64,000 nucleotides of DNA from an uncultured Planctomycetales bacterium (GCA_964603585.1 CAZRVK010000002.1:28282-92281), one strand, 5' to 3'; positions 7,326-34,312 are shown, counted from the stretch's first letter. The notes: a model not told the origin generated them from the sequence alone. Numbers and translations: made by a program.

Positions 7326-8745
7326 GTTTTTTCCACAATCTTATCCTCGGCAGGAGCATATTCATCCCCGATCTTATATAATGTAAAAATTGCTTAAAAG
7401 ACTTTATTTTAAAAACTAACCGTACTATTTGTGATAGCCTTAGATAGAAGCCGCGATTAGCCAAAGAAACATATTTGCCGATCACATCCGGGGCAAAAAC
7501 TACTCCTGCGGCCTGCGGCGGAGTTGTCCAATCCTGTTCCTCAATAAACCTGCGCCAATAGTCATCTCCTCCGGAGCGCAAAAATGAATGGTAAAGCTCG
7601 GAATCGGGAAGCATCGTAAACTGGGTAAAGTGGACGAAATCAAGCCCCAACTGCCTGGATAATTCAATATCCTTTAAAATGTCTCCCCGGCCCTGGCCGG
7701 GTAAACCCAGCATAAAGAAACCAAATGCCATTATCCCGGCATTTCTGGTAAACCTGATGACCTCTTTGGTGCGTTCAAAAGAAACCCGGGGCCTGCCTAA
7801 CTGCTCAAGGCAAGGAGAATTAAATGATTCTATTCCATACATGACCATTTTGCAACCACTACCATACATAACTTTAAGCAAATCATTATCGATACAACTA
7901 AGATGCGTCCTTATCCGCCAGGATATATCCAGGCCTTTTTCCTTTATCCCTGCACACAGCCGATAAACCCGCTGTTTATCCGCAGTAAAAATCGAATCGT
8001 AAAAGTCTATCTCCCGGACCCCGAATTCATGATAACACTGGCTGATCTCATCCAGGATATCGTCAGCACTCCTTAAGAATAAATCTCCGGGCAAAGAACA
8101 ATAGCGGCATTTGAACAAACAACCTTGGGATCCGACAATCGAGGTGAAATTCTTTCTTTCCAAAAGTGGCGAATAGTATAATTTATTATTCAGTAACCTT
8201 CTCTCCGGAAAAGGAAGCCGGCTTATATTGGATGAATCTATCGCCGCAGAATTTACGATAATATCGCCATCCCTGCGAAAACACAAGCCGGGGATCTTAT
8301 CAAGCCGGGATTTATCCATAAATGAATCCAGAAAATCCGGAAGCGTCCCTACAGCGTTGCCAATAACCCCATAATCGATCGCCTGATGCTGCATTACCTG
8401 TTTAGGATACAGCTTCATCATAGAGCCGCCCACAATGACAGGTATATCCTGATATTTCTTGATCGCCGTTATCCATTCGAGTACACCGTAAAAAGTAGGG
8501 ATGGTTAGAGTAAAAGCGGTCGCATCGGCTCCGAATTCTTTTATCCTTTCGACTATTTGCTTAAGTTTCCAATTAAGGATATTTGCATCGATAATTACAG
8601 CTTGATGCCCGGAATTATTTATAAGCGCCGCCACATAAGCCAAACTAAGCGGAGGATATCCACTCATATTCTCAAGATAACCTTGCGGCCTGAAAGTACT
8701 GTCGTAATATTGAGTGATCCTGGGATATATTAGAGCTATTCTCAT
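7306..8745 (-). CDS. B12-binding (class B) radical SAM enzyme.
   Basis: IALIYPR...PPLSLAYVAAL...VIVGG (B12 domain). GSQGCLFKCRYC (CxxxCxxC). Confidence 0.85.
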   Translation of the reverse strand: MRIALIYPRITQYYDSTFRPQGYLENMSGYPPLSLAYVAALINNSGHQAVIIDANILNWKLKQIVERIKEFGADATAFTLTIPTFYGVLEWITAIKKYQDIPVIVGGSMMKLYPKQVMQHQAIDYGVIGNAVGTLPDFLDSFMDKSRLDKIPGLCFRRDGDIIVNSAAIDSSNISRLPFPERRLLNNKLYYSPLLERKNFTSIVGSQGCLFKCRYCSLPGDLFLRSADDILDEISQCYHEFGVREIDFYDSIFTADKQRVYRLCAGIKEKGLDISWRIRTHLSCIDNDLLKVMYGSGCKMVMYGIESFNSPCLEQLGRPRVSFERTKEVIRFTRNAGIMAFGFFMLGLPGQGRGDILKDIELSRQLGLDFVHFTQFTMLPDSELYHSFLRSGGDDYWRRFIEEQDWTTPPQAAGVVFAPDVIGKYVSLANRGFYLRLSQIVRLVFKIKSFKQFLHYIRSGMNMLLPRIRLWKKHDKHLN

Positions 8746-8749: not shown

Positions 8750-10180
8750 TTAGACCTGCTTACCCTTATATGCCAAGGTTAAGGTCATATTCCTAATGAT
8801 AATAAAGAGGTTGCGTGCATAATAGAAATAGTGGCCTGAAAATAAAACTTTCCGGAATAATCGCATGATCACCGAAGGGCGCAGATAAAAAGCACAATAC
8901 GCCTTAAAAACCAACGATTTTATTTTCTTATAAGAAAACCCCTTCGGGAGATATAGTATTTCCTCTATATTTTTAGAAGTAAAATTCTCCCACTCATGAA
9001 ATATCTTTCCCCCTTCCCGCACCTTAAGATCCATAAGCCCTGTTGCCGGGAATACAATCGGGGCGCTGAAAGATGCCATATCGATATATTCTCTGGCTAA
9101 TGCAAGCGTCTCTTCTGCCGTCTGATCAGTTTCTCCCGGGGCACCGATCAGGAAATTGCCAAAAGAAATTATCCCCTGCCTGCGGGTAGCCTTAAGATTC
9201 CTTAAACTGATATCCAAGGATGATTTTTTATTTAAACGGTCTAAAACCTGCTGTGACCCTGATTCGACGCCATAAAAAATCAGTTCGCACCCGGATTTTT
9301 TCATTAACTTCAAGGTTGTTTCATTTGCAAGGTCAGGCCTGGTAACACAAAACCATTTTATCCCCAAACCTCTATCCAAAAGCTCTTGGCAAAACAGTCG
9401 GCTCCAATTATCATCAGAAGTAAATATAGCATCCAGGAAATGGAACCTCTTTACTCCATATTTATTTTTGAGAACGCTGATTTCTTCAATTACGTTTGCG
9501 ACAGACCGCCTCCTAAGCTGATCCCTCCAGACAGAATTATTGCAAAATAAACACTTATAAAAACACCCGCGGGAACTAAGAATAGGCAAAATCAGTTCAC
9601 CAGGTACAGCGCTTGAGAACAAAACATGATGCAGTGCTACCTGATAATTATTTACATTAATAAAACTGTAATCGGCAAAACCCAGTTTATCGATATCCTC
9701 AACCAGTGAGGGCAAAGGGGTAGAGATTATTTTGCCCTGGGATTTGAACATTATGCCTTTTACATCCTCCAAAGGAGAATGATTCTTGACAGCAAAACAT
9801 AAGTTTACGAAAATACTCTCCCCTTCGCCTATAACTACGCAATCGCAACAGGGTGCATCCAGGCATCTGGCGGGGGCATTCGTCGGATAAACCCCTCCCA
9901 AGACTGTAAATATGCCCGAAGAGACCTTTTTAACCTGCTCGATAACACAAAGGGCATCTTTGTGCGTAAAAGCCATGGAAGTCACCCCGACTATATCCGG
10001 CTGAAAATCTACTATGCGTTCTTTAATCTGTCCTAAACTGTATTCGCATGCATTAGCATCGATTAAAGATATCTCCTTGAAACCATTGGATTTAAGTGAA
10101 GCCCCAATATAAAGCAGCCCGAGTGGAGGGTATTTATAGCTAAAGATACTGCTTCTGGGATTGACCAGCATTATACGCAT
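8750..10180 (-). CDS. B12-binding (class B) radical SAM enzyme.
   Basis: IMLVNPR...PPLGLLYIGASL...VIGEGE (B12 domain). SSRGCFYKCLFC (CxxxCxxC). Confidence 0.85.
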   Translation of the reverse strand: MRIMLVNPRSSIFSYKYPPLGLLYIGASLKSNGFKEISLIDANACEYSLGQIKERIVDFQPDIVGVTSMAFTHKDALCVIEQVKKVSSGIFTVLGGVYPTNAPARCLDAPCCDCVVIGEGESIFVNLCFAVKNHSPLEDVKGIMFKSQGKIISTPLPSLVEDIDKLGFADYSFINVNNYQVALHHVLFSSAVPGELILPILSSRGCFYKCLFCNNSVWRDQLRRRSVANVIEEISVLKNKYGVKRFHFLDAIFTSDDNWSRLFCQELLDRGLGIKWFCVTRPDLANETTLKLMKKSGCELIFYGVESGSQQVLDRLNKKSSLDISLRNLKATRRQGIISFGNFLIGAPGETDQTAEETLALAREYIDMASFSAPIVFPATGLMDLKVREGGKIFHEWENFTSKNIEEILYLPKGFSYKKIKSLVFKAYCAFYLRPSVIMRLFRKVLFSGHYFYYARNLFIIIRNMTLTLAYKGKQV

Positions 10181-10208: not shown

Positions 10209-10964
10209 TTATTTGCTTATGAGCTGATTATTGATCATCGCTTCTTTAAGTTCAAGCACTTCGACAAAAGACCCGCGGTATCTATTCATTAATGTCTTTT
10301 CCTCTGGTTTTCTGTATTCTATATGCGTAAATGGAATAAAGGTGTGTACCATTTTTACAAATCCGACTCCTTGGGCGATCCAAAAGTCATACGTATGCAT
10401 ATGTTTACTGACTCCTTTAAGATCACGATAAGTATGTCTTACAAAAAAATGAAGGCACAAGAAATCCCCTGCCGCAGACTGCACCATCTCTTTGCCCAGA
10501 TAGGTTATCCCCGCTTCCACAGCCTCTTTATCCAGGAGATTGCCCTGATAATCATATATTGATTGCACCGAAAAAGAAAACTGGTTTGGGTTCATTTGTG
10601 ATGGCAGCATAAGCAGCGGGGGCGAAAATCTCCGGATGACCTTATGCGGCACCTGACCTGTCAGCTGCTGGTTCTGAAAGAACAATATCCCTGCGGGTGT
10701 ACGCACATTGGTCATCAAGCGGTCATGGTATTTACCCCGCCACAAAAAATCAAACTGCCGGCCAAGATTTCCGTCGAAAACATTTTGGACAGTAATCGAG
10801 ACAATATCTGACTCTGCATCTTCGTGGTAGAGATAGACATACTTGTCTCCTTCGTTAAGAGGGAAATACTTTATAATATCATAGGAATCCTTCCATTTCG
10901 CCAGGAAATATATGCCGAATAAAATAACCACAAACAACATGGCCGCAACACGCTTATTCTTCAT
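10209..10964 (-). CDS. Hypothetical membrane-anchored protein with an N-terminal TM helix/signal anchor. Function unknown.
   Basis: N-terminus MKNKRVAAMLFVVILFGIYFLA is hydrophobic. No recognisable domain. Embedded in the radical SAM/GT-C cluster. Confidence 0.45.
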   Translation of the reverse strand: MKNKRVAAMLFVVILFGIYFLAKWKDSYDIIKYFPLNEGDKYVYLYHEDAESDIVSITVQNVFDGNLGRQFDFLWRGKYHDRLMTNVRTPAGILFFQNQQLTGQVPHKVIRRFSPPLLMLPSQMNPNQFSFSVQSIYDYQGNLLDKEAVEAGITYLGKEMVQSAAGDFLCLHFFVRHTYRDLKGVSKHMHTYDFWIAQGVGFVKMVHTFIPFTHIEYRKPEEKTLMNRYRGSFVEVLELKEAMINNQLISK

Positions 10965-11089: not shown

Positions 11090-12778
11090 CTACTCCGCGT
11101 TAGAAAAACTGTATACCTCTATTTTATTGCCCTTCCAATAATCTTTTTGTTTAAAGTAATGTTTAAGCCAACCCAGGTAATTTAAAAGGGCATTCCTGCG
11201 CATATGTTCTATCCCAAGATAATCTTCATATGGAACAATCACCCGTAGACACTCATTCTTATTCATGCGTTGTGCAATCTGAATGGGAGAAATACTACCT
11301 ACGATCGAAGTGAAAAATACATCCGGATCCCTGCCGAAAACGGCATTATATGAAGCATAAACAGCCCCATTAACCCATTCCGTAGGCCAAACGACCCTAT
11401 CCTGCGGCGTAAGCCTTTGTTTTATATATGCCATGGCCTCTCGATAAGCAGGATTCATGTTATTAATGATTATCGCTCCAGAAGAAATCAGGTTAAACGG
11501 CACAACAAGCAGGCAAAATAAGTAGCCGATAATCCGCTTATAGAATACTGTGGATTTAATTACCTCATGAATCAATCGGGAATACACAAGGCAAACAAAA
11601 GGGATCAGCCAAATATAATGTCGAACGTTAAAATATGCTACCCCTATACGGGATAAAACATAACTAAAATAACACCAGTAAACTATTGCTATCGCAAATA
11701 CGGAGATAGTCAGTGTAATAAACGGTGGATTGGGCCTTTTTGCATGAAAAACAAGATAAAGCAGGAAAAGAAGAATGAACGGCGCTGTATAAAATGATCC
11801 GTCTCCTGCAAAGCCAAAGATGATCTTTAGAATATGCCCGGTAAAATATAATAATTTATCCTTTTCTGGATAGAAAAGCATCCCCGCCCTCATCCCGGAA
11901 GAAGCTCCAGAATAATACAGGTTTATCGGTAACAATATTGCTGGTATATGCAATATAAACAAGAAATTAAAGATAAGAAGTGCTTTCACAAACCTCAAAA
12001 GATCAACCAAACCATCCCTATATTTAGTTATCCATAGAATGACCAAAGCCAAACCTTGAGAAATAATTACCTGCAAGGCCAGCATGTGCATAAGAAAACA
12101 CGCCATCGTGGCAAGGCAATATTTCCAGATTCCCCGGTCTTTTTTTAAAATAAAAGCCTCCCAGAAGTAATAGTAACTAAGCAGACTGAAAAAAAGAAAA
12201 ACCGCGTAGCTTTCGATCCTAAGGCTATAAAAAGTAAAAAGGATATGGGTTGATAAAAATAGGACTGATAGATACGCTATTGCTCTCTTCTTGAATATTC
12301 TTAACGACAGCTTAAAGAATATATATATGGACAAACTGCTAAAGAGTATTGATACGGCCCTGGCCAGGAATGTCCAAACCCTGAATTCGATAATTGATTT
12401 GAGTTCGTTGGAAAAAATCAGCACATACAAAAACTGGTGCATCACCGTATAGCATGCTTGCGCGACTGCTGCCAGGCTAAAATGCGGTACGGGGAAAATG
12501 TTAAATGCCTCAATAGCATCTTCGCTTAGCTTGAGAATAGAGATCAGCTTTATGCAGCCTAAAATAACTATCCCAATAATGACAAAAATATCTAAGCGCC
12601 GAAAACCCTTGCCAGCAGATTTATTCTCCATCTTAGATCCTGCTGACACTGGTTTCAAATGAGCCCCGAGTAAATACAATAGGCAGGCATTCAATGCGAT
12701 CAATATTAGAAGCAGCGGAAAGTAATACATATAATACTCCGCCAGAGAAAATGAGTTTAATAAAACCTTAGATAGCAT
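11090..12778 (-). CDS. Polytopic membrane protein, paralogue A of a three-member GT-C-like (glycosyltransferase family 39-like) family.
   Basis: Shares FTFYSLRIESYAVFLFFSLLSYYYFWEAF and a C-terminal ...YWKGNKIEVYSF with the ORFs at 12768-14402 and 15814-17502. Acidic first-loop motif (LSEDAIEAF). Confidence 0.55.
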   Translation of the reverse strand: MLSKVLLNSFSLAEYYMYYFPLLLILIALNACLLYLLGAHLKPVSAGSKMENKSAGKGFRRLDIFVIIGIVILGCIKLISILKLSEDAIEAFNIFPVPHFSLAAVAQACYTVMHQFLYVLIFSNELKSIIEFRVWTFLARAVSILFSSLSIYIFFKLSLRIFKKRAIAYLSVLFLSTHILFTFYSLRIESYAVFLFFSLLSYYYFWEAFILKKDRGIWKYCLATMACFLMHMLALQVIISQGLALVILWITKYRDGLVDLLRFVKALLIFNFLFILHIPAILLPINLYYSGASSGMRAGMLFYPEKDKLLYFTGHILKIIFGFAGDGSFYTAPFILLFLLYLVFHAKRPNPPFITLTISVFAIAIVYWCYFSYVLSRIGVAYFNVRHYIWLIPFVCLVYSRLIHEVIKSTVFYKRIIGYLFCLLVVPFNLISSGAIIINNMNPAYREAMAYIKQRLTPQDRVVWPTEWVNGAVYASYNAVFGRDPDVFFTSIVGSISPIQIAQRMNKNECLRVIVPYEDYLGIEHMRRNALLNYLGWLKHYFKQKDYWKGNKIEVYSFSNAE

Positions 12779-14402
12779 TTTTAGGCGTATATAGATAGAC
12801 TTTTATTTTATTCCCCGACCATACAGATATAAGATCCAATTGCTGATTTAAAAAATCCAGGTAGGTAGGGAATAAATTACTGTTCAAATGGGATGAGCCG
12901 AAATAATCTTCCTGGAAGATGATAATCCAGAACCGCTTGAATCTTTCTTTCTTCTTTAATATATTTCCGGGGTATAATTCTCCGGAATTCTCGAAATCAA
13001 GGTTAAGCCGCCCTTTGGAATTAAATTTAATGCACATGCGTATACAGCAAGGATAACCTAAAAAATCATTTTGGTGATCGATTTGCTGGCTTATATAACC
13101 TAATGCGCCATTATAATCAGAAACCCAAAGATCGGTTATTATCTCCTGTGATTTAGACAGGTTTATACCGCCCAAAAAAATGACTAAAACCAGCCCGGCA
13201 ACCTGAAAACACCTTTTTCCTGAACGCAGCAGGCGGATCAAACCATAACTGTATAAAATGGTCAAAAACGGGACAAGCCATAAGAGCTGGCGGATATTGA
13301 AATACAGTTTTCCGGAAATCGATATCATCCGCAGAAGAAAAAATGACTCATATAAAAAACCCGCAGTTAAAATAGATACGATCATCAGGAAAAAACTTTT
13401 ATTTTCTTTTGCTAATAAATACAAGAATATAAATGCTAGCAGGCAAAAACCCAGAGCAGGAATCAAAAAATAGGTCCCGGACAATAATCTAAGGATATCG
13501 CCTAAGACAGAGGAAAGGCTCTCTTTTCCTAACAAAAAACCACCGTCTGAACGGAATGTCTTATCCCAGAGAGCAAGATATCCAAGCGGCAAATAGAGAA
13601 TAAATAAGAAGCCGCCAATAAACACCGAACGCACAAACAACAGGGATTCCCGCTTGCCAACCAGTGATCTTGCCTTTAATAACAAGATGGCGCATATCTG
13701 CCCAAAAAGAAGAAAAATCGTCAAATAATGTGTTAAAAAAGAAATGATCAAAACAACCGCGTATTTAATCTGTGCTTGCCTGAAGCCCTGGACAAAAGCC
13801 TGCCAGAAATAGTAACAGCTCAAAAGCGACAAGAAGGAAAACGCAGTATATACTTCTATCCGGCGAGAATAAAAAACAAATAAAAAATGGATATTAAGCA
13901 AAATAAATGACGATATCGCAATATCTTTCCGGTTAAACACTACAAAACATAACTTGTAAGCCAGATATGCGGTAAGAACCCCGAATACTACAGAGAAAAA
14001 ACGTAAGGAGATTAAACCATATTGCGCGCCCGCAATATTATTTATGAATTCCGAGATAATGTGGTATAGCGGCTGATGGGAACAAAAGATCATATTGGTC
14101 AGGAAACTACCGATACCGGAATGAAGGAACATAAGATTGGTGGATTCCATTATATCAAAACTCTCTCTATCTAAATTAAAACTTTTCCAGGCTGTAAAAA
14201 ATACGGCCAATAAGACAACTGTTTGGCTAAACAATAAATTTGATCCCTGCGGGGAAGTTTTAGCTGCGGCGGTGTTGTCTTTATGCAAACGCCTGTTCAA
14301 AAAGAATAATATTATCCAGTTAATAAGCAGGCCGATGACTATACCCGGCCAGTAATCCGCATAAAGTTTAACTAATTTATCGATGAAATACCGTTCATCC
14401 AT
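12768..14402 (-). CDS. Polytopic membrane protein, paralogue B of the GT-C-like family.
   Basis: FVFYSRRIEVYTAFSFLSLLSCYYFWQAF. C-terminal VWSGNKIKVYLYTP. First-loop DIMES motif. Confidence 0.55.
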   Translation of the reverse strand: MDERYFIDKLVKLYADYWPGIVIGLLINWIILFFLNRRLHKDNTAAAKTSPQGSNLLFSQTVVLLAVFFTAWKSFNLDRESFDIMESTNLMFLHSGIGSFLTNMIFCSHQPLYHIISEFINNIAGAQYGLISLRFFSVVFGVLTAYLAYKLCFVVFNRKDIAISSFILLNIHFLFVFYSRRIEVYTAFSFLSLLSCYYFWQAFVQGFRQAQIKYAVVLIISFLTHYLTIFLLFGQICAILLLKARSLVGKRESLLFVRSVFIGGFLFILYLPLGYLALWDKTFRSDGGFLLGKESLSSVLGDILRLLSGTYFLIPALGFCLLAFIFLYLLAKENKSFFLMIVSILTAGFLYESFFLLRMISISGKLYFNIRQLLWLVPFLTILYSYGLIRLLRSGKRCFQVAGLVLVIFLGGINLSKSQEIITDLWVSDYNGALGYISQQIDHQNDFLGYPCCIRMCIKFNSKGRLNLDFENSGELYPGNILKKKERFKRFWIIIFQEDYFGSSHLNSNLFPTYLDFLNQQLDLISVWSGNKIKVYLYTPKNAI

Positions 14403-14412
14403 CTATTGCCCC

Positions 14413-15768
14413 CTAAAGATACGAGGTTACTGCTGAAAATCCGGTCTTTACCAGAAACACCAGGTCTTCCATGGTTTTTATTTTCTTGAATTGTTTAAAT
14501 AAATATGCCGGCCTTAAATAGAAACGCAAAAAAGAATTCCTGGCCGTTCGCTTCACCAATTCTTGAGATGGGAAATTAGAATTGCTTTTTTGGAACTCAT
14601 CATAAAAATCAGTTCCCGGCATAAGGTAAGTGGTATTAAATTGCGCATAATCCACTCCTAACTCCAAAGCAAAATTATACAAGTCTTTTATAGTTTGTAT
14701 GCTATCCCCCAGCATGCCATACATGAAAAGCCCCAGGACCTCCATCTGCGCTTCTTTTGCCCATTTAGCTGCCTGGCGCGACTGGGCGATAGTTATCCCT
14801 TTATTTGCAATATCAAGCGATTGCTGGCTTGAACTTTCAAAACCGAAAGAAATCTGGTAACAACCCGCCCGCCTCATTAAGGTTAAAAGCTCCTTATCTA
14901 CCAGATCAACCCGGGTAGAACTCCTCCAGGAGATATCAATCTTATTGGAAATGATATATTCACACATTTTCCAGGTCAGTTCCCTGTTACTGGTACAAAC
15001 CTGGTCCCTAAAAAAGATCTCTCCGATCTTATATTTATACACGATCTCATTCAATTCTTCCTTAATGGAATCGAAATCCCGGTAACGCATCTCCCTAAGC
15101 GTATAAAGCCAGGAAGTGCAGAACCTGCACTTGCTATGCGGGCACCCCCTGCTGGTTGACATTGCCGTAACAGGATTACGCCGGTTAAAAATCGCATACC
15201 TGTATGCCTGATTATCGATCAAATCCCGGGCCGGGATCGCCAATTCTTTCATATCTACTAACCTGCGGACACCTTGAAAGATCTTCCCGTTCTGCTTGTA
15301 TGCCACATTCTCATCATACTTGCCCTGCATGATATTCTCTAACGGTAATTCGAGTTCGCCAAGAGCGACAAAATCAACACTGCCATCATCCAGGGCGATT
15401 GCAGGATCCGATATGACCGGAGGGCCGCCAAAGATTATTTTGACCCGCGCAAGACTATCCTTAATAAGGCGGGCAAGCCATTTATCCTCTTCGACACTGA
15501 AATGAGTAGTGGATAAAGCCACATAATCCGGATTTTCCCGGACCACCATTTTTACCAGCTCCGGATGCCGGATATGTTTGATGCTGGCTTCGATGATCTT
15601 GGCCTCGAACCCCTTTTTACGCAGATAACCGGCCGCATACATTAAATCCAAAGGAGGAAACGGTACATATCCCAGGATATAAGCCGCAGACCAGTCTCGA
15701 AGCAGATGTATATGCTTATTTGAATCAGGCCTGCATCCTAAAGGGTCTAAAAGCAATATCTTGGCCAT
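14413..15768 (-). CDS. B12-binding (class B) radical SAM enzyme with non-canonical CX4CX2C cluster spacing.
   Basis: ILLLDPLG...IIFGGPP...ALGELE (B12 domain). TSRGCPHSKCRFC gives C-x4-C-x2-C rather than C-x3-C-x2-C. Confidence 0.8.
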   Translation of the reverse strand: MAKILLLDPLGCRPDSNKHIHLLRDWSAAYILGYVPFPPLDLMYAAGYLRKKGFEAKIIEASIKHIRHPELVKMVVRENPDYVALSTTHFSVEEDKWLARLIKDSLARVKIIFGGPPVISDPAIALDDGSVDFVALGELELPLENIMQGKYDENVAYKQNGKIFQGVRRLVDMKELAIPARDLIDNQAYRYAIFNRRNPVTAMSTSRGCPHSKCRFCTSWLYTLREMRYRDFDSIKEELNEIVYKYKIGEIFFRDQVCTSNRELTWKMCEYIISNKIDISWRSSTRVDLVDKELLTLMRRAGCYQISFGFESSSQQSLDIANKGITIAQSRQAAKWAKEAQMEVLGLFMYGMLGDSIQTIKDLYNFALELGVDYAQFNTTYLMPGTDFYDEFQKSNSNFPSQELVKRTARNSFLRFYLRPAYLFKQFKKIKTMEDLVFLVKTGFSAVTSYL

Positions 15769-15813
15769 TTGTATTCGCTCCTCTCAATGAAATATAAACT
15801 GCTCAATCGAATA

Positions 15814-17502
15814 TTATTTACTGGTTTCGAATAAATACACCTTGATCTTGTTGCCGCTCCACACGGAATTAAAGGAAAAATTGCGTTTCAGGAAAAACAT
15901 ATGTCCTAAGAATGTCCTCTCTGGTAAATGCAAAACCCCCAAAAAATCCTCCTTTGGAATCACCACCCACAGCCTTTTGCACATACCTTTCTTAGCCAAT
16001 AATTCTTTTGGAGTGGCACTTTTAAACATACAGAAATTTTCTTTCCAGCTGCCGCTTAAGAATGAATAGGCAGTTAATCCCATCACATGATCCATCAATT
16101 TCGTGCGCCAAATAATACCATCACCAGCCCTGCTTTTTTCATTTATATATTCCAAAGCTAAACGGTAGTCAGGATTGATATTCCTAACCACTATTCTACT
16201 AGAAATAATCACATTGAAAACCATAAAGATAACGAACACGGCAATCCCGGCCTTATGAATAAATTTATTGCGGACCAAGGTCAAGAAATAAGCCCCGTAT
16301 CCATACAATAAAGCTATAAACGGCAAAAACCATATAACATGCCTTAAATTAAAATATGCCCTATCGGCGTTTAAAAGCACAAAAATTATAAAGCAAATTT
16401 CATAAACAAAAAGCAGGCCAAAAGAAACAGCCATAAGCAGGAATAAGGGGGGATTTATCCTCTTTAGTTTTATAAAAATAATGGCGCAAACAAGTATGCA
16501 TAATAATACTGCAGCCATAGAGCCGGGAGAACCCAGAAGTATTCTAACCAGGTTAAAAACGATGTTCGGGATCTCATCCTTGCTTAAATAATCAATATTT
16601 TGCCACCGGATACCCTTAAAAGACGGCCTATTCATGTAAGCGCCAAAAAGCATGATTGGTAAGTACAATATCACTGCCATAAAAACCACTGTTACCGACT
16701 TAAGATATAACAGCCAGGCCCGGGGGTTTAAAGGAGAATTTCTTCTTAATCTAAGGATCCCCAGAGTCAAAAACTGTGATGCAACAACAAACAATGCTAT
16801 ATAATGCATCAAAAAAGCCAATATCGTTGCTATAGAATATTTGAATACGCTTTCCTCCTTCGAAACAATAAATGTGTTCCAATAATAATAATAACTAAGC
16901 ATCACGAAAAACAAAAAGAAAACATATACTTCCACCCTTAAGCTGTAAAATGTAAAAAAACCGTGTGATAAGAAAATGGCCGTTGCCCAATAAGCAATAA
17001 TCCTTTTAGCGGATATAGCATATGCGAATTTAAAAAACAGGCAGGCGGACAGGAAGCTAAAGAATACTGAAACAAAGCGGGCAAGAAAAAACCAGTAATG
17101 CGGATCAATATGATATAATGCGCCATTTAGGGCAAAGGGGTAAACTATTTGGTGGCCAAACATGGAAAAGGCCTCGATCCCTTCTATTAAGCTCCCTCCC
17201 ATCCTCGGGCCGAGGCTAACAGACTCCTGTATATCAATGCTTATTTTATACAAGTTAACAGTCTTGAAAAGGGTAACTATAAATGCGGCGATCATAACTA
17301 CAAACATATCTTTACTGAATAAACCGTGTCGAACCGTTCCATCCATTGAAACTTTTGGATTATCCCTGGCGGTAACACGGCTAAGCCAATAAAATAATGC
17401 TAAATCCATGATCCCCAATGCGATGATAAAAAACAGGTAGTGGTTATAATATTCTATTATGCTCGGTGAAGGATAAGAAAAAAAAGATAAGATCTTTTCC
17501 AT
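15814..17502 (-). CDS. Polytopic membrane protein, paralogue C of the GT-C-like family.
   Basis: FTFYSLRVEVYVFFLFFVMLSYYYYWNTF. C-terminal VWSGNKIKVYLFETSK. First-loop IDIQES motif. Confidence 0.55.
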   Translation of the reverse strand: MEKILSFFSYPSPSIIEYYNHYLFFIIALGIMDLALFYWLSRVTARDNPKVSMDGTVRHGLFSKDMFVVMIAAFIVTLFKTVNLYKISIDIQESVSLGPRMGGSLIEGIEAFSMFGHQIVYPFALNGALYHIDPHYWFFLARFVSVFFSFLSACLFFKFAYAISAKRIIAYWATAIFLSHGFFTFYSLRVEVYVFFLFFVMLSYYYYWNTFIVSKEESVFKYSIATILAFLMHYIALFVVASQFLTLGILRLRRNSPLNPRAWLLYLKSVTVVFMAVILYLPIMLFGAYMNRPSFKGIRWQNIDYLSKDEIPNIVFNLVRILLGSPGSMAAVLLCILVCAIIFIKLKRINPPLFLLMAVSFGLLFVYEICFIIFVLLNADRAYFNLRHVIWFLPFIALLYGYGAYFLTLVRNKFIHKAGIAVFVIFMVFNVIISSRIVVRNINPDYRLALEYINEKSRAGDGIIWRTKLMDHVMGLTAYSFLSGSWKENFCMFKSATPKELLAKKGMCKRLWVVIPKEDFLGVLHLPERTFLGHMFFLKRNFSFNSVWSGNKIKVYLFETSK

Positions 17503-17541: not shown

Positions 17542-18954
17542 TTATGCAACCTCTGGCTTAAAAATGGTCCGAGAAAAGTAAACTTTAATCACCCGCAATA
17601 ATTTCGGCAGGTGCTTTAACTTTATATGTTTAATGATCTTAAATAACCTTTTTGGATTGTATATGTATGAACTTATAAATGCCCTGACAAAGATCCTGCG
17701 CAAGGCATCCTTTTTGACCATGCAGGTATCGAAAGGATTAGTAAAAACAAAACTCTCCCAAAGGATATCATTAATTTCACCATGCAAATACAATCTCTGG
17801 AACAATTCTGAACCCGGATAAGGAACGGCGAAAGAAAATACAACATAATCCAGCGGGGATCTTCTTGCGAACTCAACGGTTAATTCCAAAGTCTGCCGGG
17901 TATCATTTGGCAATCCGAGGATAAAGAAACCGAATGTTTCAAACCCATGCCTTTTTACCATCTCGATCTTTTTTAAAACCGTCGAGGCAGATAACGGTTT
18001 TTGATTTTTCTCTAAAACTTCACTGGAAACCGATTCTATGCCAAACCCCAATTGATAACATCCTGCCTGCTTCATAACGCTTAGCAACTCATCATCCAAA
18101 GAATCCAAACGCACGCCAACAGGGGTTTTCCAGGTAATATCCAGCCCCCTTTTTATTATCTCTGTGCATATAGCTATTGCATGTCCGCGGACTTCTGTAA
18201 AATTGTCATCAATTATATTTATCTCCTTAATACCAAAATCCTTGATCAGGCACTCAATTTCATTGACCACCGCATCCGCACTGCGCAACCGTATCTTCCG
18301 GCCATGAACTGCTTGAGAACAGCAAAAACTACAGTTATGCGGACATCCTCTTGAAGTAATGACCGGTGCGGCTGGATGGCGCAAACCAAAAATATGTCCC
18401 GGGGTATCGATATAAGAAGCAGGATCGATTAATTGCCATGCGGGAGTTTCTAAAGAGTCGAGGTCCTTAATTATATTTATTCCCTCCGTCCTGATTATTT
18501 CGTTATTTTTCTTAAAAACTACTCCCGGATAACCGCTAAGGTCATTTTCTTTTAAATTATAACCATAAGATTTGACCATATCGACAAAGACTTCTTCCGC
18601 TTCCCCAATAATGCCGATATCGGCTCCTAAATCCGCCAAAGCAAACTCCGGCAAGGCGGAAATATGCGGGCCTCCAATGACGATATTGACATCGGGCTTA
18701 AGATCCTTGAGCTGCGCAATTATTCCTTTTATCTTCCCATATGAAGGGGTAAAAACGCTTAAACCGACTATAACCGGCTCTTCTGCAAGAATCTTTAAAG
18801 CCGCATCCATAGGGGTACCTTTATAGACAGACAAATTCAATATTCCTGAATCTATCCCGTTCTTTATCAAAGCAGACGCGATATAGGATATGCCTAAATA
18901 GGGCGTGTGCGAGACTGTATTTGCAGGAGGGATAACCAGGAGTATCTTATGCAT
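17542..18954 (-). CDS. B12-binding (class B) radical SAM enzyme.
   Basis: ILLVIPPAN...IVIGGPH...IIGEAE. TSRGCPHNCSFC. Confidence 0.85.
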   Translation of the reverse strand: MHKILLVIPPANTVSHTPYLGISYIASALIKNGIDSGILNLSVYKGTPMDAALKILAEEPVIVGLSVFTPSYGKIKGIIAQLKDLKPDVNIVIGGPHISALPEFALADLGADIGIIGEAEEVFVDMVKSYGYNLKENDLSGYPGVVFKKNNEIIRTEGINIIKDLDSLETPAWQLIDPASYIDTPGHIFGLRHPAAPVITSRGCPHNCSFCCSQAVHGRKIRLRSADAVVNEIECLIKDFGIKEINIIDDNFTEVRGHAIAICTEIIKRGLDITWKTPVGVRLDSLDDELLSVMKQAGCYQLGFGIESVSSEVLEKNQKPLSASTVLKKIEMVKRHGFETFGFFILGLPNDTRQTLELTVEFARRSPLDYVVFSFAVPYPGSELFQRLYLHGEINDILWESFVFTNPFDTCMVKKDALRRIFVRAFISSYIYNPKRLFKIIKHIKLKHLPKLLRVIKVYFSRTIFKPEVA

Positions 18955-18969: not shown

Positions 18970-20391
18970 TTAAATATCGGCGGCCACAAATCTCATAAAA
19001 ACGATGAGATTGCGCAACATAGACCGCAAGCTGCTTAACTTTAAAAAAAGCGGCAAATACCGTATAAGGGCCCGGGGACGTAAATAAAATTCCCTATAGG
19101 CTTTCTTCCGTAACCTTAGAAGATCGCTCTTTGACAAAGCTTCGGTTTCAAATACCGGATCTCCATGCCATGAATATTTACTCCAATCCAAACTCCTTAA
19201 ATAACCCTTTTTCTTAAAATAGCTGAAAGATTTTGTCCCCGGCAAAGGCGATAAATATAAATATGTTGCATAAGTCGGGTTGATTCTCTTGGAAAACTTA
19301 ATGGTGTCTTCTACCGTAGCAACCGAATCCCCTTCACAGCCAATGATAAAAGTCGCCCAAGAATTTATACCAACCTTATTTATCAACTCAAACGCTTTAC
19401 AAATGGTGGCTGTATCGATATTCTTATTGCACTTTTTTAGGACTTCATCATTGCCGCTTTCAACCCCAACCTGGATCTCGACACACCCGGACTGCTTCAT
19501 CTCGCGCAATAATTCAAGCGACATATTATCGGCCCGGCCATGGCAAATCCATTTTAGCCCCGGGAAATATTTGCGTATCCCTTGACAGAACCGGACCACC
19601 CTTTCACAAGAACCAGTAAAATCATCATCATGCAAGAATAATAATGCCGCGTTATACCGTTTAATCAGATGTTCCATCTCCTTAAAAACGTTTTCCAGGC
19701 TTCTATACCGGGTCAGGCCATTCCAAATCAGGGAACTTGAACAAAAATCGCATTTATAGTTACAACCCCGAGAAGTAATAATAGAGTGGTAATAGGGGTT
19801 TTTTACCGGATATGGATAGATATGCCGGTAGGTATTTCTCGGCAACAGCTGGCGTGCGGGAAAATCCAATACATCCAGATCAACTATCAAACTGCGTTTT
19901 TTAGTAAGAAAATCACTGCCATTTTGTCTATAAGCGATACCCATAACCCGGCTGAAATCACGGTCTAAATCCTGACAAAATATGATATCTTTAAAAGTCT
20001 CTTCTCCTTCACCTACCACACAAATATCTGCAACATCAAGGTTTTCAAACGGCAAAGCAGAAACATGCGGCCCGCCAAAAACAATAAGCGTATCAGGAAG
20101 CGATTCCCGGATAGCTTGAGCCGTTTTTCTTGCGGATCCGGCCGTAATCGTAGAAAGAGTGATCCCGACTATCTCTGGGGCAAACTTAATTACCCGACCT
20201 AATACCTGTTGATGAGACATATTCAATCCGGCAGCATCACAAATATCAACTGCCGATCCCGGGAAGTTCTTTATTATTGATGAAGCCAAATAAGCCACAC
20301 CCAAAGGCTCGCTCTTATAGTTGACGGCGCCTTTTAGCAGGCCGGGGAAATAACTGTAATTGGGATTGATCAGCTGGATCCTTTTTGGCAT
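18970..20391 (-). CDS. B12-binding (class B) radical SAM enzyme.
   Basis: IQLINPNYS...IVFGGPH...VVGEGE. TSRGCNYKCDFC. Confidence 0.85.
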   Translation of the reverse strand: MPKRIQLINPNYSYFPGLLKGAVNYKSEPLGVAYLASSIIKNFPGSAVDICDAAGLNMSHQQVLGRVIKFAPEIVGITLSTITAGSARKTAQAIRESLPDTLIVFGGPHVSALPFENLDVADICVVGEGEETFKDIIFCQDLDRDFSRVMGIAYRQNGSDFLTKKRSLIVDLDVLDFPARQLLPRNTYRHIYPYPVKNPYYHSIITSRGCNYKCDFCSSSLIWNGLTRYRSLENVFKEMEHLIKRYNAALLFLHDDDFTGSCERVVRFCQGIRKYFPGLKWICHGRADNMSLELLREMKQSGCVEIQVGVESGNDEVLKKCNKNIDTATICKAFELINKVGINSWATFIIGCEGDSVATVEDTIKFSKRINPTYATYLYLSPLPGTKSFSYFKKKGYLRSLDWSKYSWHGDPVFETEALSKSDLLRLRKKAYREFYLRPRALIRYLPLFLKLSSLRSMLRNLIVFMRFVAADI

Positions 20392-21047
20392 TTTATAAAT
20401 ACATATCCTGTAAAGCCCTGGTTGAATTCATGCTTTTGAACAAGTTCAAAGCCGTGATTCTTAAATGATCCCCAGAATTCACTACGGCAATATTGGATCT
20501 TTTTTATGATCTCCTCAAGAAAAACCACTGTTTTCAAAATGATACTGCCCTGCTTGGATCCCGGGTCCAATTCAATAACAACGAACAACCCCTTATCCTT
20601 AAGCAGTAAAGCCGCCTCGGATAACAAAAACAGCCTCTTTTTTTCGGGCATATGGTGAAAAACATTGATAGCAAGGATAGCGTCAAAGGAATCCGGCTTA
20701 AAACATAAATTGTGGTTTCCACTTACGCAACAAAATCCGCTGGTCTTACTTTTTGCGAATTTTAAAGGAATAATATCCTTATCCACTCCGACATAGCGCA
20801 CACGAGAATCCCCCTTAAATGCATCATATGCAAAACCTTCTCCACAGCCAAAATCCAAGACCCGTACTTCTTCCTGACCATACCATTGTATGGACTGTTT
20901 TAAAAAAACCTTTTCTGCGCGGATATCGCGCGTTAAGAATTGCAGCCCATAATGTATTGCCGTAAACGGATAAAAAATTGAACAACCCAACAATCTAAGA
21001 TTATTACATCCTGCAACAATATCTTTGGGGCATGAATTTTGAGACAT
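20370..21047 (-). CDS. Class I SAM-dependent methyltransferase.
   Basis: Motif I VLDFGCGEGF. Post-I acidic residue (VGVDKD). LAINVFHHMPE (motif IV-like). Confidence 0.75.
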   Translation of the reverse strand: MSQNSCPKDIVAGCNNLRLLGCSIFYPFTAIHYGLQFLTRDIRAEKVFLKQSIQWYGQEEVRVLDFGCGEGFAYDAFKGDSRVRYVGVDKDIIPLKFAKSKTSGFCCVSGNHNLCFKPDSFDAILAINVFHHMPEKKRLFLLSEAALLLKDKGLFVVIELDPGSKQGSIILKTVVFLEEIIKKIQYCRSEFWGSFKNHGFELVQKHEFNQGFTGYVFIKCQKGSS

Positions 21048-21086: not shown

Positions 21087-22631
21087 CTATGGATATATCC
21101 TCTCAAGATATTGCAGCACTCTTTCATTATTGACAGTTCCAACGCATTTTTGAAGTATGATCCAGCTATCTTTAAAATCCAGTGTGGTATATCCGGAATT
21201 ATTCATGAGGCCCTTTAACCTGGGGATAAATTCCGCACGGCTGACCGGATAAAAATCATCCCGGGAAAGATCCAGGAAAATATACTCCCAGGAAACATCA
21301 TCCTTTATCAGCCAATTAGACAGATCACCAAGGGATCCGCACTGGGACAAATGTGGAGCTAATGATTGCATGGTTAAACAAGCGGCCCCGGGAGGGATTT
21401 TCTTCAACATCTCCTTACCTATCGAAACATGCTGTGTCTCGACTAATGACCCCAGACTAAAGTCGCGATTAAAGGGGATCTCAAGGTCCCCGCCGGCAAA
21501 AGTGCTTTTCGGCAGGCATAGATAATGCAAGAAACAAACCTTGACCAACACTATAACCGCAAACAGGTTTGCCAATAATGCATACCGCACTTCCGCAGTA
21601 ACCGCGTTTCTTCTTGGGATGATACCTGTAAGAAAATCCAGGAATTTCTTGATCCCGAACAAACCAGCATAAATTGTAAACGCAAGCAGCATGAAATGCC
21701 CGGTCGAATGATGGTTCCTTAAGAGCAAAAACAGGGTTTCCGGGATCAAAGGGATAAGCCGGAGTGGAGACAAAAAGGCAAAAATAAACGGAAACCCGAA
21801 GAAAACAGATGGCAGCATATTAAACGGATTAAAAATATTCCTTAACACTGCCAAAGGATCCGCTTTAATACTATTCAGCACTAAAAGAAAATTGTCGTTA
21901 TACTGCCCCAAATGCAATAACCCGAAAGGAAAATCCTTTTTTGCTATCGACAGATACAATAGGACCAAAACTGCAATAATTATCAGCCAAGATGCACAGA
22001 TGAAAAATGCCACCCTGGCGAATTTCTTTTGGCCTCTAAGAAAATACAGTACCAGGCTAAACAAAAGGTTAATCACAACAACGTCTATCTTTGCCGCATT
22101 CGATAGAACAAGAAAAATAGAAAACCAGAATATACTCCCCTTTTCCAGGGATAAAAACATCCCCAGAAGAAATAATAACCCTATCGCCAGAGGCATGTAC
22201 CCCAATAAAGAACCCGTTGTGACAACCGGATGCAAAAGATACGCTACCGATAGCGCAAATGAGAGAATACGACTCTTGACGATCCCTCTGGAAAGTAAAT
22301 AAACAAAAACCGCTCCTATAGACATAAAAGAACTTTGAAACCAAAGCAAAGCCTGCGGCTTTAAGATCAAACCGTAAATATGGGCAAAAATAAAATTGAT
22401 CGGGGTAAGGATGAAAAAAATAAACGCGTATTCCGGAAGGATAAACAACTCGAACGGACTCCGCCCATAGGCTATCTTTGGATAGATATGTATGAATTGC
22501 CAGCCGAAGGTTGTAGATGAAAAAATGTTAAACTTAGCCGCATTGATAAAACCAAAGGCGGAAGCGTAAAGAATCGATAGCAATATTACACCTATCAATC
22601 CAGCATCTATCTTATGGTTATCAGACATCAC
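21087..22631 (-). CDS. Polytopic integral membrane protein of unknown family, with a C-terminal soluble domain.
   Basis: About 10-12 hydrophobic helices. The C-terminal roughly 150 aa is hydrophilic. No family motif recognised. Confidence 0.45.
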   Translation of the reverse strand: MMSDNHKIDAGLIGVILLSILYASAFGFINAAKFNIFSSTTFGWQFIHIYPKIAYGRSPFELFILPEYAFIFFILTPINFIFAHIYGLILKPQALLWFQSSFMSIGAVFVYLLSRGIVKSRILSFALSVAYLLHPVVTTGSLLGYMPLAIGLLFLLGMFLSLEKGSIFWFSIFLVLSNAAKIDVVVINLLFSLVLYFLRGQKKFARVAFFICASWLIIIAVLVLLYLSIAKKDFPFGLLHLGQYNDNFLLVLNSIKADPLAVLRNIFNPFNMLPSVFFGFPFIFAFLSPLRLIPLIPETLFLLLRNHHSTGHFMLLAFTIYAGLFGIKKFLDFLTGIIPRRNAVTAEVRYALLANLFAVIVLVKVCFLHYLCLPKSTFAGGDLEIPFNRDFSLGSLVETQHVSIGKEMLKKIPPGAACLTMQSLAPHLSQCGSLGDLSNWLIKDDVSWEYIFLDLSRDDFYPVSRAEFIPRLKGLMNNSGYTTLDFKDSWIILQKCVGTVNNERVLQYLERIYP

Positions 22632-24142: not shown

Positions 24143-25321
24143 TTAATACTTGAATATCTCTCCGCTGTTAATCTCGTTTATAAAGAATTCGTATTCAGCG
24201 ATCAATTTCCGCCTGACATTTTCGTCGATATTTATCGCTTTAGCGGCTATTTTTCGGCAATAGCCACATTCATCACAAGACTTATCCCGGCATTGCTCTT
24301 CAATAAAATAATTAATGAATCCATCTAACTTTCTGTTATCTATATTTATATGGATATCCCTGACTAGCTTACTCATTTCGATAAGCTTGAAAATATTGAT
24401 CTTTAATGGATGAAAGAAATACTTGAGTTTATGGATGAAGTTCGGGTTTTTCACCCAAAGGCTTTTTGATGGATTGGCAAACAAATCATAAAGATTACCT
24501 TCGTAACTTCTGGAGGAATATGCTTCTGTTATTAAACTTAATGCATCTGAATGCATCGTTCTATCAACTATCTTGAATCTGTCTATACCTATTCCCTCGT
24601 AAACCTTTAAATCCTCCGGCCTAATCCATGCCGTACGTATTAAATTGGCAGGGTCTTTAAGCATCGCATATCTGCACATAATACGGCAATAATCAAAAAG
24701 ATACTCCCCTGGCCGGGTTATATCTTGAGACCCGTGCGAACTGGTATTATTATGGTAAAAATACCTTGGGCAATGCTGCAGACAATCCTCGTTTACAATA
24801 AGCTGAAGCCCGCATTCTACTCCTTTTCTTATCTTCGCAAGAAGTTTAAAATCACGGTTGACTTCACCCAATGACAGTGTAATAACAGACGCGCCCAAAT
24901 CCTGCCAGAATTTTGCCTTGGCTACCGAATTTACATTCGCAAAACAGGAAACCGAAAGTTCAAACTGCGGGTATTTCAATTTGATCAACTGAAAAAGGTA
25001 AGGGCTGGTCACCACCAGTCCATCCACTCTTACTTCTAAAAGCCAATCAAGCAGCTTATGGAGCTTTTTTTGGCCTTTTATGCTCCATTCTCTGTTTCCC
25101 AAACAGGAGGCATTTAAAAGATAGAAGAACTTCCATCCTTGCTTTTGGATCTGCCCGATGTGCGCTTTGGCATAATTCCTGGATACCCCGCGGATAACAC
25201 AAGTTGCTCTTCCTCCTCCAACAAAATCCTTATCCAGTTTACCGTATACCGTGTCCACGGACGGTTTTTTTATCTTAAGGACTAAATCTTCCTGCCAATT
25301 TGTAGGTACAGTTAGTTTCAT
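24143..25321 (-). CDS. U32-family protein (peptidase U32 / UbiV-RlhA-like; putative Fe-S O2-independent hydroxylase), copy 1.
   Basis: N-terminus MKLTVPTNWQ...FVGGGRA parallels the UbiV N-terminus MKYSLGPVLWYW. The central segment aligns by eye to the UbiV TIM-barrel region. Cys-rich stretches CLQHCPRYF, CRIMC and CDECGYC. Tandem paralogue of 25338-26531. Confidence 0.55.
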   Translation of the reverse strand: MKLTVPTNWQEDLVLKIKKPSVDTVYGKLDKDFVGGGRATCVIRGVSRNYAKAHIGQIQKQGWKFFYLLNASCLGNREWSIKGQKKLHKLLDWLLEVRVDGLVVTSPYLFQLIKLKYPQFELSVSCFANVNSVAKAKFWQDLGASVITLSLGEVNRDFKLLAKIRKGVECGLQLIVNEDCLQHCPRYFYHNNTSSHGSQDITRPGEYLFDYCRIMCRYAMLKDPANLIRTAWIRPEDLKVYEGIGIDRFKIVDRTMHSDALSLITEAYSSRSYEGNLYDLFANPSKSLWVKNPNFIHKLKYFFHPLKINIFKLIEMSKLVRDIHINIDNRKLDGFINYFIEEQCRDKSCDECGYCRKIAAKAINIDENVRRKLIAEYEFFINEINSGEIFKY

Positions 25322-25337
25322 TTGTTTTTAATAATTA

Positions 25338-29622: not shown

Positions 29623-29682
29623 CCACTTTGCCGTACGCGTTTATAGCACTTTTGCAGCTAAATCTAAAATCATTTTAAAATC

Positions 29683-34305: not shown

Positions 34306-34312
34306 TTTATCC

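Follow-up and report, generated by a model that had tools for sequence, protein, structure and literature searches.

Three paralogous membrane proteins in a radical SAM-rich operon

What could three paralogous membrane proteins, resembling glycosyltransferases of the GT-C type, be doing in the midst of genes for cobalamin-dependent (B12) radical SAM enzymes? GT-C enzymes are familiar from N-glycosylation, O-mannosylation, lipid A modification and mycobacterial cell-wall synthesis; we know of none that works with cobalamin-dependent radical SAM enzymes. The genes lie in a stretch of 64,000 nucleotides (the window), placed by its SecA in Omnitrophota, a group which to our knowledge has no cultured model and whose cell-surface chemistry is not known.

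The three genes, termed A (11090-12778, 562 aa), B (12768-14402, 544 aa) and C (15814-17502, 562 aa), are all encoded on the minus strand, with exactly the boundaries given in a first-pass annotation of the window. Their paralogy, also proposed there, is far beyond chance (MAFFT identities of 28-32%, BLASTP E-values of 7e-47 or better). Over approximately 550 residues, BLASTP gave 31.6% identity for A and C (E 1e-72), 28.8% for B and C (E 1e-55) and 27.9% for A and B (E 7e-47). A and B share 11 nt, at the start of A and the end of B. In public data A is called as a protein of 513 aa (P0001); the 49 additional N-terminal residues of our reading align with B, C and family members from other genomes, suggesting that the public call is probably truncated. 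Among the motifs said to be common to the three proteins, the core FxFYS[LR]R[IV]E[SV]Y and the C-terminal tail W[SK]GNKI[KE]VY were indeed found in all of them, while C departs from the continuation [FL]S[LM]LS with FVMLS.

The whole radical SAM-rich operon system extends over about 35 kb, and its main minus-strand operon over about 27 kb, with gaps between genes of at most 126 nt. The latter operon opens with the B12-radical SAM gene rS_26636 (26636-28081). Further along the same strand are two U32-family paralogues (25338-26531 and 24143-25321, Pfam Peptidase_U32, mutually 47% identical by BLAST), which form a conserved core with the B12-radical SAM gene rS_22639 (22639-24123), a DUF2079 polytopic membrane protein (21087-22631, Pfam 77.6 bits), a class I SAM-dependent methyltransferase (20370-21047, Pfam Methyltransf_11/25/12) and the B12-radical SAM genes rS_18970 (18970-20391) and rS_17542 (17542-18954). 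The last of these is the upstream neighbour of C, and another, rS_14413 (14413-15768), is located directly upstream of B. Beyond A lies a gene for a 251-aa protein with an N-terminal hydrophobic anchor (10209-10964). Its direct Pfam match is weak, and it is homologous to proteins of two related loci (L004 and L012) that score above the DUF3108_like threshold; this DUF3108-like protein is presumably periplasmic. It is followed by two B12-radical SAM genes (8750-10180 and 7306-8745), each of its own orthogroup, and by two canonical GT-C proteins of the PMT_2 family, both above the Pfam cutoff (5784-7325, with a WFDE loop containing D42 and E43, 46.6 bits; 4087-5787, 31.3 bits). The last of these minus-strand genes are a further B12-radical SAM gene (2592-4082) and one for a polytopic membrane protein of 614 aa without known family (803-2647), which is a conserved cluster member. 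We considered the 803-2647 protein as another GT-C enzyme and rejected it (hhalign probability of 3% against PMT_2, no Pfam match).

Two sister B12-radical SAM genes (28162-31143, plus strand, 100% bootstrap) diverge from the main operon. They are followed on the minus strand by a protein of 522 aa that has a membrane region at its N-terminus and for which no family was found (31140-32708), another B12-radical SAM gene (32737-34359) and a GT9 heptosyltransferase-like gene (34313-35536; Pfam). Altogether, 11 genes combine the Pfam domains B12-binding and Radical_SAM. The cysteine cluster reads CX3CX2C in ten of the 11 and CX4CX2C in rS_14413. None of the cluster's radical SAM proteins reached an NCBIfam equivalog threshold; the best matches, all far below cutoffs, were to HpnJ, BchE and a 'lipid biosynthesis B12-binding/radical SAM' model. 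Neither a GtrB/DPM1-like GT2 enzyme (polyprenyl-phosphate sugar synthase) nor a flippase was found in the window's cluster. Two flanking genes that could be taken for hopanoid genes do not bear such a reading: 37375-38820 encodes a CrtI-family desaturase, 35676-36542 is CrtB/HpnD-like below the equivalog cutoffs, and both lie outside the conserved cluster.

Fold and relationship to PMT_2 proteins

An AlphaFold2 (AF2) model of C, built from an alignment of 67 sequences, had a pLDDT of 90.9. All 26 Foldseek matches of this model at E≤0.001 were GT-C proteins, and the family of A, B and C is thus predicted to have the GT-C fold, as the first-pass annotation had supposed. The proteins show a polytopic membrane fold with a conserved N-terminal helix module and an extended first external loop containing short helices. 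The best match was ArnT (GT83, PDB 5F15/5EZM; E 5e-6, TM about 0.5), the enzyme which transfers L-Ara4N from undecaprenyl phosphate to lipid A. ArnT is of similar size and, like the family, carries a small C-terminal soluble domain; however, it is only 10-11% identical to the family, the Asp of its first external loop is not conserved at the homologous family position, and arn genes are absent from the window. Unlike Pmt1, Pmt2 and Pmt4 (GT39) and STT3, AglB and PglB (GT66), the family has no MIR domain, no WWDxG motif and no large periplasmic domain of the oligosaccharyltransferase kind.

At the sequence level, B alone among the three passed the Pfam threshold for PMT_2 (30.0 bits, cutoff 26.1). 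The sole Pfam match of C was to PMT, at 19.3 bits below the cutoff of 22.7, B likewise gave a weak PMT match, and the Pfam search of A returned no match. A sequence search of the PDB yielded nothing. PMT_2 was matched by 53 of the 67 aligned relatives, and B matched the PMT_2 gene at 5784-7325 in the same window with a BLAST E-value of 7e-13. When the family was compared with canonical PMT_2 proteins by hhalign, the probability was 100% (E 5.7e-45, 455 columns) and the homology extended from end to end, with the C-terminal alpha/beta domain and the final beta-strand included. Bacterial PMT_2 (PF13231) proteins such as 5784-7325 have the same order of helices, and share with the family an invariant Arg (R142 of C), a Ser and an HxP.Y motif. 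The subfamily is an offshoot of the bacterial PMT_2 (GT39/GT83-like) group. It differs from PMT_2 proteins by an extra conserved hydrophobic helix at the N-terminus and by its tight linkage to B12-radical SAM genes.

Altered catalytic motifs

The conserved motifs of the family fall in loops that match the canonical GT-C motifs, and charge counts over the AF2 helices are roughly consistent with a periplasmic position of these motifs. None of the canonical motifs ES.W.DE, HPPLY and YSQE.R.Y is kept unaltered in any family member. In the first loop, which reads SEDAIEA, SFDIMES and SIDIQES in the three paralogues, the canonical W.DE is replaced by D.[MQI]E. An acidic loop like the DE loop of ArnT and PMT enzymes, noticed in the first-pass annotation, is therefore only partly present: the family Glu is homologous to the canonical loop Glu, while the column of the canonical catalytic Asp is occupied by Met, Gln or Ile in every family member, and the invariant Asp of the family stands two residues upstream, in the column of the canonical Trp. 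Similarly, YSQE.R.Y has become YS[RL]R.E.Y, with the two charges swapped, and HPPLY has become HQP[LF]Y.

In 14 very divergent members (A, B, C and 11 from other genomes), 20 residues do not vary, among them D90, E93, R142, R189, E191, H233 and R387 in the numbering of C. This pattern suggests an active site that has been relocated rather than decayed. Because the canonical Asp position holds Met, Gln or Ile, the usual mechanism of glycosyl transfer is not guaranteed. With its displaced Asp and reversed Arg/Glu pair, the family offers a natural experiment on the rearrangement of a GT-C active site.

Occurrence and conserved linkage in other genomes

The subfamily is rare. An exhaustive HMMER search of 1.84e9 proteins, on which this estimate rests, gave 21 representatives at E<1e-30 and, beyond these, a tail of 4,643 distant GT-C proteins; pattern scans of metagenomes and of genomes added one locus each. 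So far, the members of known taxonomy come from Omnitrophota and one Planctomycetia MAG. Any two of them are only 25-35% identical.

We then asked whether the neighbourhood with B12-radical SAM genes recurs elsewhere. In about 12 independent loci, one of them from the Planctomycetia MAG, single family members stand beside orthologues of the same B12-radical SAM types, of the methyltransferase and of the DUF3108-like protein (L003, L008-L012, L014-L016, L018 and L019). Orthologues of rS_14413 (57-58% identity) adjoin family members in L003, L009, L011 and L012, those of rS_18970 (49-55%) in L008, L009, L014, L016 and L019, and those of rS_17542 (40-42%) in L014, L018 and L019. The same is true for orthologues of the 20370-21047 methyltransferase in L009, L015 and L019 (34-36%) and of the DUF3108-like protein in L003, L009, L010 and L012 (43-58%). 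The genomic association of the family with certain B12-radical SAM orthogroups, with a methyltransferase of class I and with a DUF3108-like protein is conserved.

Other parts of the operon recur as well. L004, L005 and L012 contain orthologues of rS_22639 (48-61% identity), of the U32 pair (59-72%) and of the DUF2079 protein (39-43%; its gene directly precedes the family member in L012), together with homologues of the 803-2647 membrane protein (39-43%). In L005, the DUF3108-like domain is fused to the C-terminus of the DUF2079 protein. Synteny is seen in L012, whose cluster has one family member and also an orthologue of rS_26636 (54%). Related loci frequently include the U32 pair and genes for DUF2079, GT2 and Wzy_C; GT2 genes adjoin family members in L005, L015 and L019, and DegT aminotransferase and Acyl_transf_3 genes likewise occur in related clusters. 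When the window is compared with L012, identity amounts to 24-43% for the GT-C parts, as against 46-72% for the cytoplasmic enzymes, a pattern known from surface-glycan loci. In the literature, we found nothing relevant on this type of cluster. A link to S-layer glycosylation in Kuenenia was considered and dropped, since the text of the S-layer paper contains none of the terms 'gene cluster', 'radical SAM' and 'B12'. An anammox or ladderane origin was set aside as well, the SecA of the window pointing to Omnitrophota.

An expanded cluster instead of a repeated module

The three paralogues had been interpreted as copies of a duplicated unit, each with one or two class-B radical SAM genes immediately adjacent. 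This adjacency applies to C, which lies between 17542-18954 and 14413-15768, and to B, which adjoins 14413-15768. A has B and the DUF3108-like gene (10209-10964) as neighbours, and its nearest radical SAM gene (8750-10180) is one gene further. Duplication of a whole unit is not supported by the phylogenies. In a neighbour-joining tree, rS_17542 and rS_14413 are not sisters; each flanking radical SAM belongs to its own deep orthogroup, with orthologues in other genomes at 100% bootstrap. The family tree pairs A with C (96% bootstrap) and separates B, the copy whose upstream radical SAM is conserved in other genomes. Moreover, a single family member, in place of three, is present in related clusters. 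Most family members of other genomes have their best BLAST match in B, and by this measure it is the copy closest to the single members found there. The operon represents the expansion of a cluster with a single family member in other genomes, and not a tandem repeat of radical SAM and GT-C units. Successive rounds of sugar addition and C-methylation, as suggested along with the module, may still take place.

Possible function and alternative explanations

On balance, we consider it somewhat probable that A, B and C are rare GT-C transferases dependent on polyprenyl-phosphate sugars, acting in a pathway for a radical SAM-tailored envelope glycoconjugate. The three copies would have diverged anciently and are probably all active. 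The glycan context is given by the GT9 gene in the window and by GT2, Wzy_C, DegT and Acyl_transf_3 genes in related clusters. The lack of a GtrB/DPM1-like enzyme and of a flippase in the window's cluster weighs against this reading, as does the loss of Asp from its canonical position.

The same genes could be assigned to lipid modification. The radical SAM enzymes, the U32 pair and the methyltransferase would then remodel a membrane lipid (acyl chains of lipid A, an isoprenoid or carotenoid, an ether lipid or a membrane-spanning lipid), and the GT-C proteins would decorate its head group in the periplasm, as ArnT does with lipid A. With ArnT at the top of the Foldseek matches and HpnJ and BchE as the best radical SAM matches, lipid substrates fit equally well, the NCBIfam lipid-biosynthesis model being another of the top hits, all far under cutoffs. 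Genes of the CrtB-like, IspH and CrtI families border the cluster at 35676-38820, and an LpxL-like acyltransferase, Lnt and the GT9 gene are close by. For B12-radical SAM enzymes, modification of lipid tails is established in archaea and probable for some bacteria (PMC11214058). Nevertheless, the operon does not include the carotenoid and IspH genes, part of which are on the opposite strand. None of these genes was seen in the related clusters, which hold typical glycan genes (GT2, Wzy_C, DegT, Acyl_transf_3) instead; nor did any radical SAM pass a lipid-enzyme threshold. We regard lipid modification as unlikely.

Modification of a secreted protein or a RiPP-like peptide by the radical SAM enzymes, followed by periplasmic O-glycosylation in the manner of protein O-mannosyltransferases, would agree with the homology of the family to the PMT/PMT_2 clade and with sub-threshold matches to several NCBIfam RiPP radical SAM models. 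It seems very improbable, however, given that the 27-kb operon with its short gaps has no space for a precursor gene, that protease, leader-recognition and exporter genes were not found, and that DegT, GT2 and Wzy_C genes elsewhere indicate glycan assembly. A RiPP precursor inside the operon is in fact excluded by the gap lengths. Equally doubtful to us is that the paralogues are non-catalytic scaffolds of GT-C fold, or membrane partners presenting substrates to the radical SAM enzymes after loss of the canonical catalytic Asp. The replacement of this Asp in all family members and their fast sequence evolution (pairwise identity of 25-35%) speak for such a role, but the 20 residues invariant in 14 members, among them the new upstream Asp, the kept Glu and the swapped Arg/Glu pair, argue against it.

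Returning to the glycoconjugate pathway, its steps might proceed as follows. At the cytoplasmic face, class-B radical SAM enzymes would tailor nucleotide- or polyprenyl-linked sugar precursors, be it by C-methylation or by radical reactions of another kind. Further participants in this tailoring would be the class I methyltransferase and the U32 pair, the latter in analogy to hydroxylases that work without oxygen. After flipping of the precursors, the GT-C proteins would transfer the residues onto a periplasmic acceptor, which may be a glycoprotein or a glycan resembling LPS, O-antigen or capsule, and the DUF3108-like protein could serve as a periplasmic accessory. GenK and GenD1 are class-B radical SAM sugar C-methyltransferases of soluble antibiotic pathways and are not known to act beside GT-C membrane enzymes; the cluster's radical SAM proteins share their B12-binding and radical SAM architecture, but gave no match at the level of a family, all NCBIfam hits being far below cutoffs.

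More tentatively, and with considerable doubt, we can speculate that anaerobic Omnitrophota and their relatives possess an undescribed envelope-glycan pathway, in which C-methyl, hydroxyl or other radical modifications are added to lipid-linked sugars by up to a dozen distinct B12-radical SAM enzymes together with a U32 pair of oxygen-independent hydroxylases. A GT-C subfamily with a moved catalytic acid and a swapped Arg/Glu pair would have co-evolved to transfer these sugars, its paralogues corresponding to three tailored residues. The conserved linkage of the motif-rewired subfamily to specific B12-radical SAM orthogroups points to an unexplored oxygen-free route to cell-surface glycoconjugates. 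In the glycoconjugate pathway set out before, the three copies in one operon would provide three donor or acceptor specificities, or else form hetero-oligomers, with the 11-nt overlap of B and A in mind; paralogous GT-C enzymes can act as heterodimers, as do Pmt1-Pmt2 and EmbA-EmbB.

A divergent GT-C subfamily

Three minus-strand ORFs, A (11090-12778, 562 aa), B (12768-14402, 544 aa) and C (15814-17502, 562 aa), lie exactly where the first-pass annotation placed them. They are unambiguously paralogous, as identities over approximately 550 residues reach 31.6% for A/C (E 1e-72), 28.8% for B/C (E 1e-55) and 27.9% for A/B (E 7e-47). The core and tail motifs quoted for them are present, with a small deviation in C (FVMLS). 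In the public gene call, A comprises 513 aa and starts at Met50. The 49 upstream codons encode a hydrophobic N-terminal helix that the family has in addition to the canonical PMT_2 helices and that is kept in B, C and foreign members, which implies that the public start lies too late; judged from this conservation, gene A is probably the full 562-aa ORF, whose start overlaps B by 11 nt.

An AlphaFold model of C, based on a 67-sequence alignment from an exhaustive search, reached pLDDT 90.9 and pTM 0.92 (a 4-sequence alignment had given pLDDT 51.6). Foldseek matches of this model in the PDB at E<=0.001 were GT-C enzymes only, ArnT being the best, followed by PglB, STT3, ALG9, DPY19, AftA, Emb and Pmt4. 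The GT-C-like fold suspected earlier was thus recovered, and not a Wzy, ligase or transporter fold. The family (A, B, C and foreign relatives) is small: exhaustive HMMER searching of 1.84 billion representatives yielded 21 proteins at E<1e-30, about 10 of them full-length (350-513 bits), below which scores fall sharply into 4,643 distant relatives. The majority of the latter are Pfam PMT_2 proteins (PF13231; 53 of 67 sampled). Profile-profile comparison of 14 family members with 30 canonical PMT_2 proteins gave a probability of 100% (E 5.7e-45), the 455 aligned columns taking in the C-terminal domain. The family is of PMT_2 ancestry, although B alone scores above the Pfam PMT_2 threshold and A has no Pfam match. 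The 'GNKI.VY' tail is not unique to the family, since it represents the last beta-strand, also present in canonical proteins.

The correspondence of motifs, on which MAFFT and hhalign agree, reveals rewiring. In loop 1, canonical 'ES.W.DE' becomes '[DS].[FI]D.[MQI]E[SA]'; the Glu is kept, the canonical Asp column is non-acidic and the place of the canonical Trp is taken by an invariant Asp. 'YSQE.R.Y' becomes 'YS[RL]R.E.Y', with Glu and Arg positions swapped, and 'HPPLY' becomes 'HQP[LF]Y', with Pro replaced by Gln. Because 20 residues are invariant across 14 members otherwise 25-35% identical (all 20 are kept in A, B and C), we read the active site as apparently relocated rather than lost. 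Charge counts over the AF2 helices, from which we infer orientation rather than predict topology, are roughly compatible with periplasm-facing motifs.

Radical SAM genes and the supposed module

The region 11090-17502 had been regarded as a repeated unit of radical SAM and GT-C genes, each paralogue being immediately adjacent to a radical SAM gene. Adjacency holds for C on both sides and for B upstream, but not for A, whose neighbours are B, overlapping by 11 nt, and a DUF3108-like gene of 251 aa (10209-10964). Every radical SAM gene around the three encodes both B12-binding and Radical_SAM domains. In a neighbour-joining tree of window radical SAMs and relatives from other loci, the orthogroups (rS, named after window gene starts) rS_17542, upstream of C, and rS_14413 (14413-15768 (-)), directly upstream of B, were not sisters. 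Eight of the eleven window radical SAMs fell into separate deep orthogroups together with orthologues from other genomes (100% bootstrap), the exceptions being rS_2592, rS_29683 and rS_32737. The star-like family tree pairs A with C (96%) and leaves B separate; related clusters carry a single family member, mostly closest to B. A repeated module is therefore contradicted. The locus shows a single recent duplication of radical SAM genes, 28162/29683, which form the sole within-genome sister pair (100% bootstrap). A gap of 81 nt separates this opposite-strand pair (28162-31143 (+)) from the main operon, and the two are transcribed divergently.

None of the window radical SAMs reached NCBIfam equivalog thresholds. 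rS_14413 has a CX4CX2C iron-sulfur motif (CPHSKC[RK]FC), the other ten having CX3CX2C; the deviation is kept in three orthologues (L003 706-2067, L009 289-1704, L012 1629-2987; L numbers denote related loci elsewhere).

Conserved linkage in other genomes

The presumed co-occurrence of homologues with B12-radical SAMs is real and more specific than proposed, as defined orthogroups stand beside family members. In L003 and L011, a DUF3108-like gene (56%) and an rS_14413-type gene (58%) precede the family member. L009 has the same order (rS_14413-type, 57%), followed by genes of the MT_20370 type (class I methyltransferase, 20370-21047 in the window) and rS_18970 type (50%). The family member is followed by an rS_18970-type gene in L008 and L016 (51-55%), by rS_18970- and rS_17542-type genes in L014, and by an rS_17542-type gene (42%) in L018. 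In L015, the order is B12-radical SAMs, GT2, Wzy_C, family member and MT_20370-type gene. L019 (GCA_043826565.1) has GT2, family member, rS_18970-type (49%), rS_17542-type (40%), radical SAM and MT_20370-type genes, besides a DegT/EryC1 sugar aminotransferase, further GT2s (three in all) and a Wzy_C-TPR protein; no other gene set hints so clearly at a sugar pathway. L019 1-9804 and 16437-21469 also encode three Zn_ribbon_HMPTM-domain and two SPASM radical SAMs.

L012 is a syntenic counterpart of the window operon: rS_26636, two U32 genes, rS_22639, DUF2079 and the family member are followed by a pair of DUF3108-like genes, a gene homologous to that of the 803-2647 membrane protein, PMT_2 and rS_8750. 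L004-L007, from Planctomycetia-type MAGs, retain the U32, rS_22639, DUF2079, family, DUF3108-like, membrane-protein and PMT_2 genes, with GT2, Wzy_C and an HGD-D/BcrAD/ferredoxin trio added. This trio (2-hydroxyacyl-CoA-dehydratase-like protein, BcrAD-type ATPase activator and poly-ferredoxin), absent from the window, directly precedes the family member (L004 5951-9212, L005 6041-9928). In L003 (3816-4496) and L010 (2358-3473), a small radical SAM without a window counterpart lies downstream of the family member; it carries a hydrophobic stretch at the N-terminus and a CLLCPRLC...GFC motif, and it is similar to proteins of the activating-enzyme or AmmeMemoRadiSam type.

Extent of the locus

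The locus spans 803-35536, well past A-C, which lie within a single tightly packed minus-strand array (803-28081). It encodes 11 B12-radical SAMs, two paralogous U32 proteins, a class I methyltransferase and a GT9, together with A, B, C, two canonical PMT_2 proteins (4087-5787 and 5784-7325), DUF2079, DUF3108-like and two membrane proteins that belong to no known family. Of these, 803-2647 (-) showed no Pfam, NCBIfam or PMT_2 relation and has homologues at 39-43% identity in L004, L005 and L012; 31140-32708 (-), without a detectable family, combines a multi-helix N-terminal region with a long soluble C-terminal part. Genes outside the locus are housekeeping (SecA, RF2, Lnt, LpxL-like acyltransferase, MurJ, LptE, BamD), SecA being 72-78% identical to that of many Candidatus Omnitrophota MAGs. 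Exact window proteins were found on one NCBI contig (320 kb) and in two Logan assemblies. Directly beside the cluster (35676-38820) lie phytoene/presqualene synthase-like, IspH and CrtI-family desaturase genes, which are probably unrelated neighbours, as none was seen in any related cluster.

Possible function

Glycan-type genes (GT2, Wzy_C, DegT and Acyl_transf_3 in cluster relatives, GT9 in the window) often lie nearby. We somewhat favour a model in which family members would transfer sugars from polyprenyl-phosphate carriers onto a periplasmic acceptor, while the tailoring of these sugars, or of the glycan on its lipid carrier, would fall to the radical SAMs, the two U32 proteins and the methyltransferase in the cytoplasm; A, B and C might supply different specificities or form hetero-oligomers. 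Decoration of a lipid seems unlikely, and modification of a protein or peptide is more doubtful still, as is, to the same degree, a role of the family members as non-catalytic scaffolds. Demonstration of a radically tailored glycan would substantially raise the significance of the locus. The fold and superfamily are already known, and no description of this cluster type or GT-C subfamily was found in the published literature; what is new is the motif-rewired subfamily, its confinement to a few PVC-type lineages and the conserved way in which it is coupled to cobalamin radical SAM enzymes.

Partner proteins and divergence

In L005 (3833-6037), L006 and L004 (1728-3968), DUF2079 carries a C-terminal domain 50% identical to the window DUF3108-like protein. 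The fusion argues for a functional link between both proteins, with DUF3108-like therefore likely to work with the membrane enzymes. The two window U32 paralogues (24143-26531 (-)) are 47% identical to each other and match only the N-terminal part of Pfam and TrhP models. The block which they form with the 22639-24123 radical SAM and DUF2079 (21087-22631) is also conserved in L004, L005 and L012, where identities range from 39 to 72%. Between the window (803-28081) and L012 there is a strong disparity of rates inside one syntenic cluster: cytoplasmic enzymes are 46-72% identical (U32 62-72%, radical SAMs 46-61%), whereas GT-C-type proteins reach only 24-43% (family member 29%, PMT_2 24%), and DUF2079 and the 614-aa membrane protein (803-2647) 43%.
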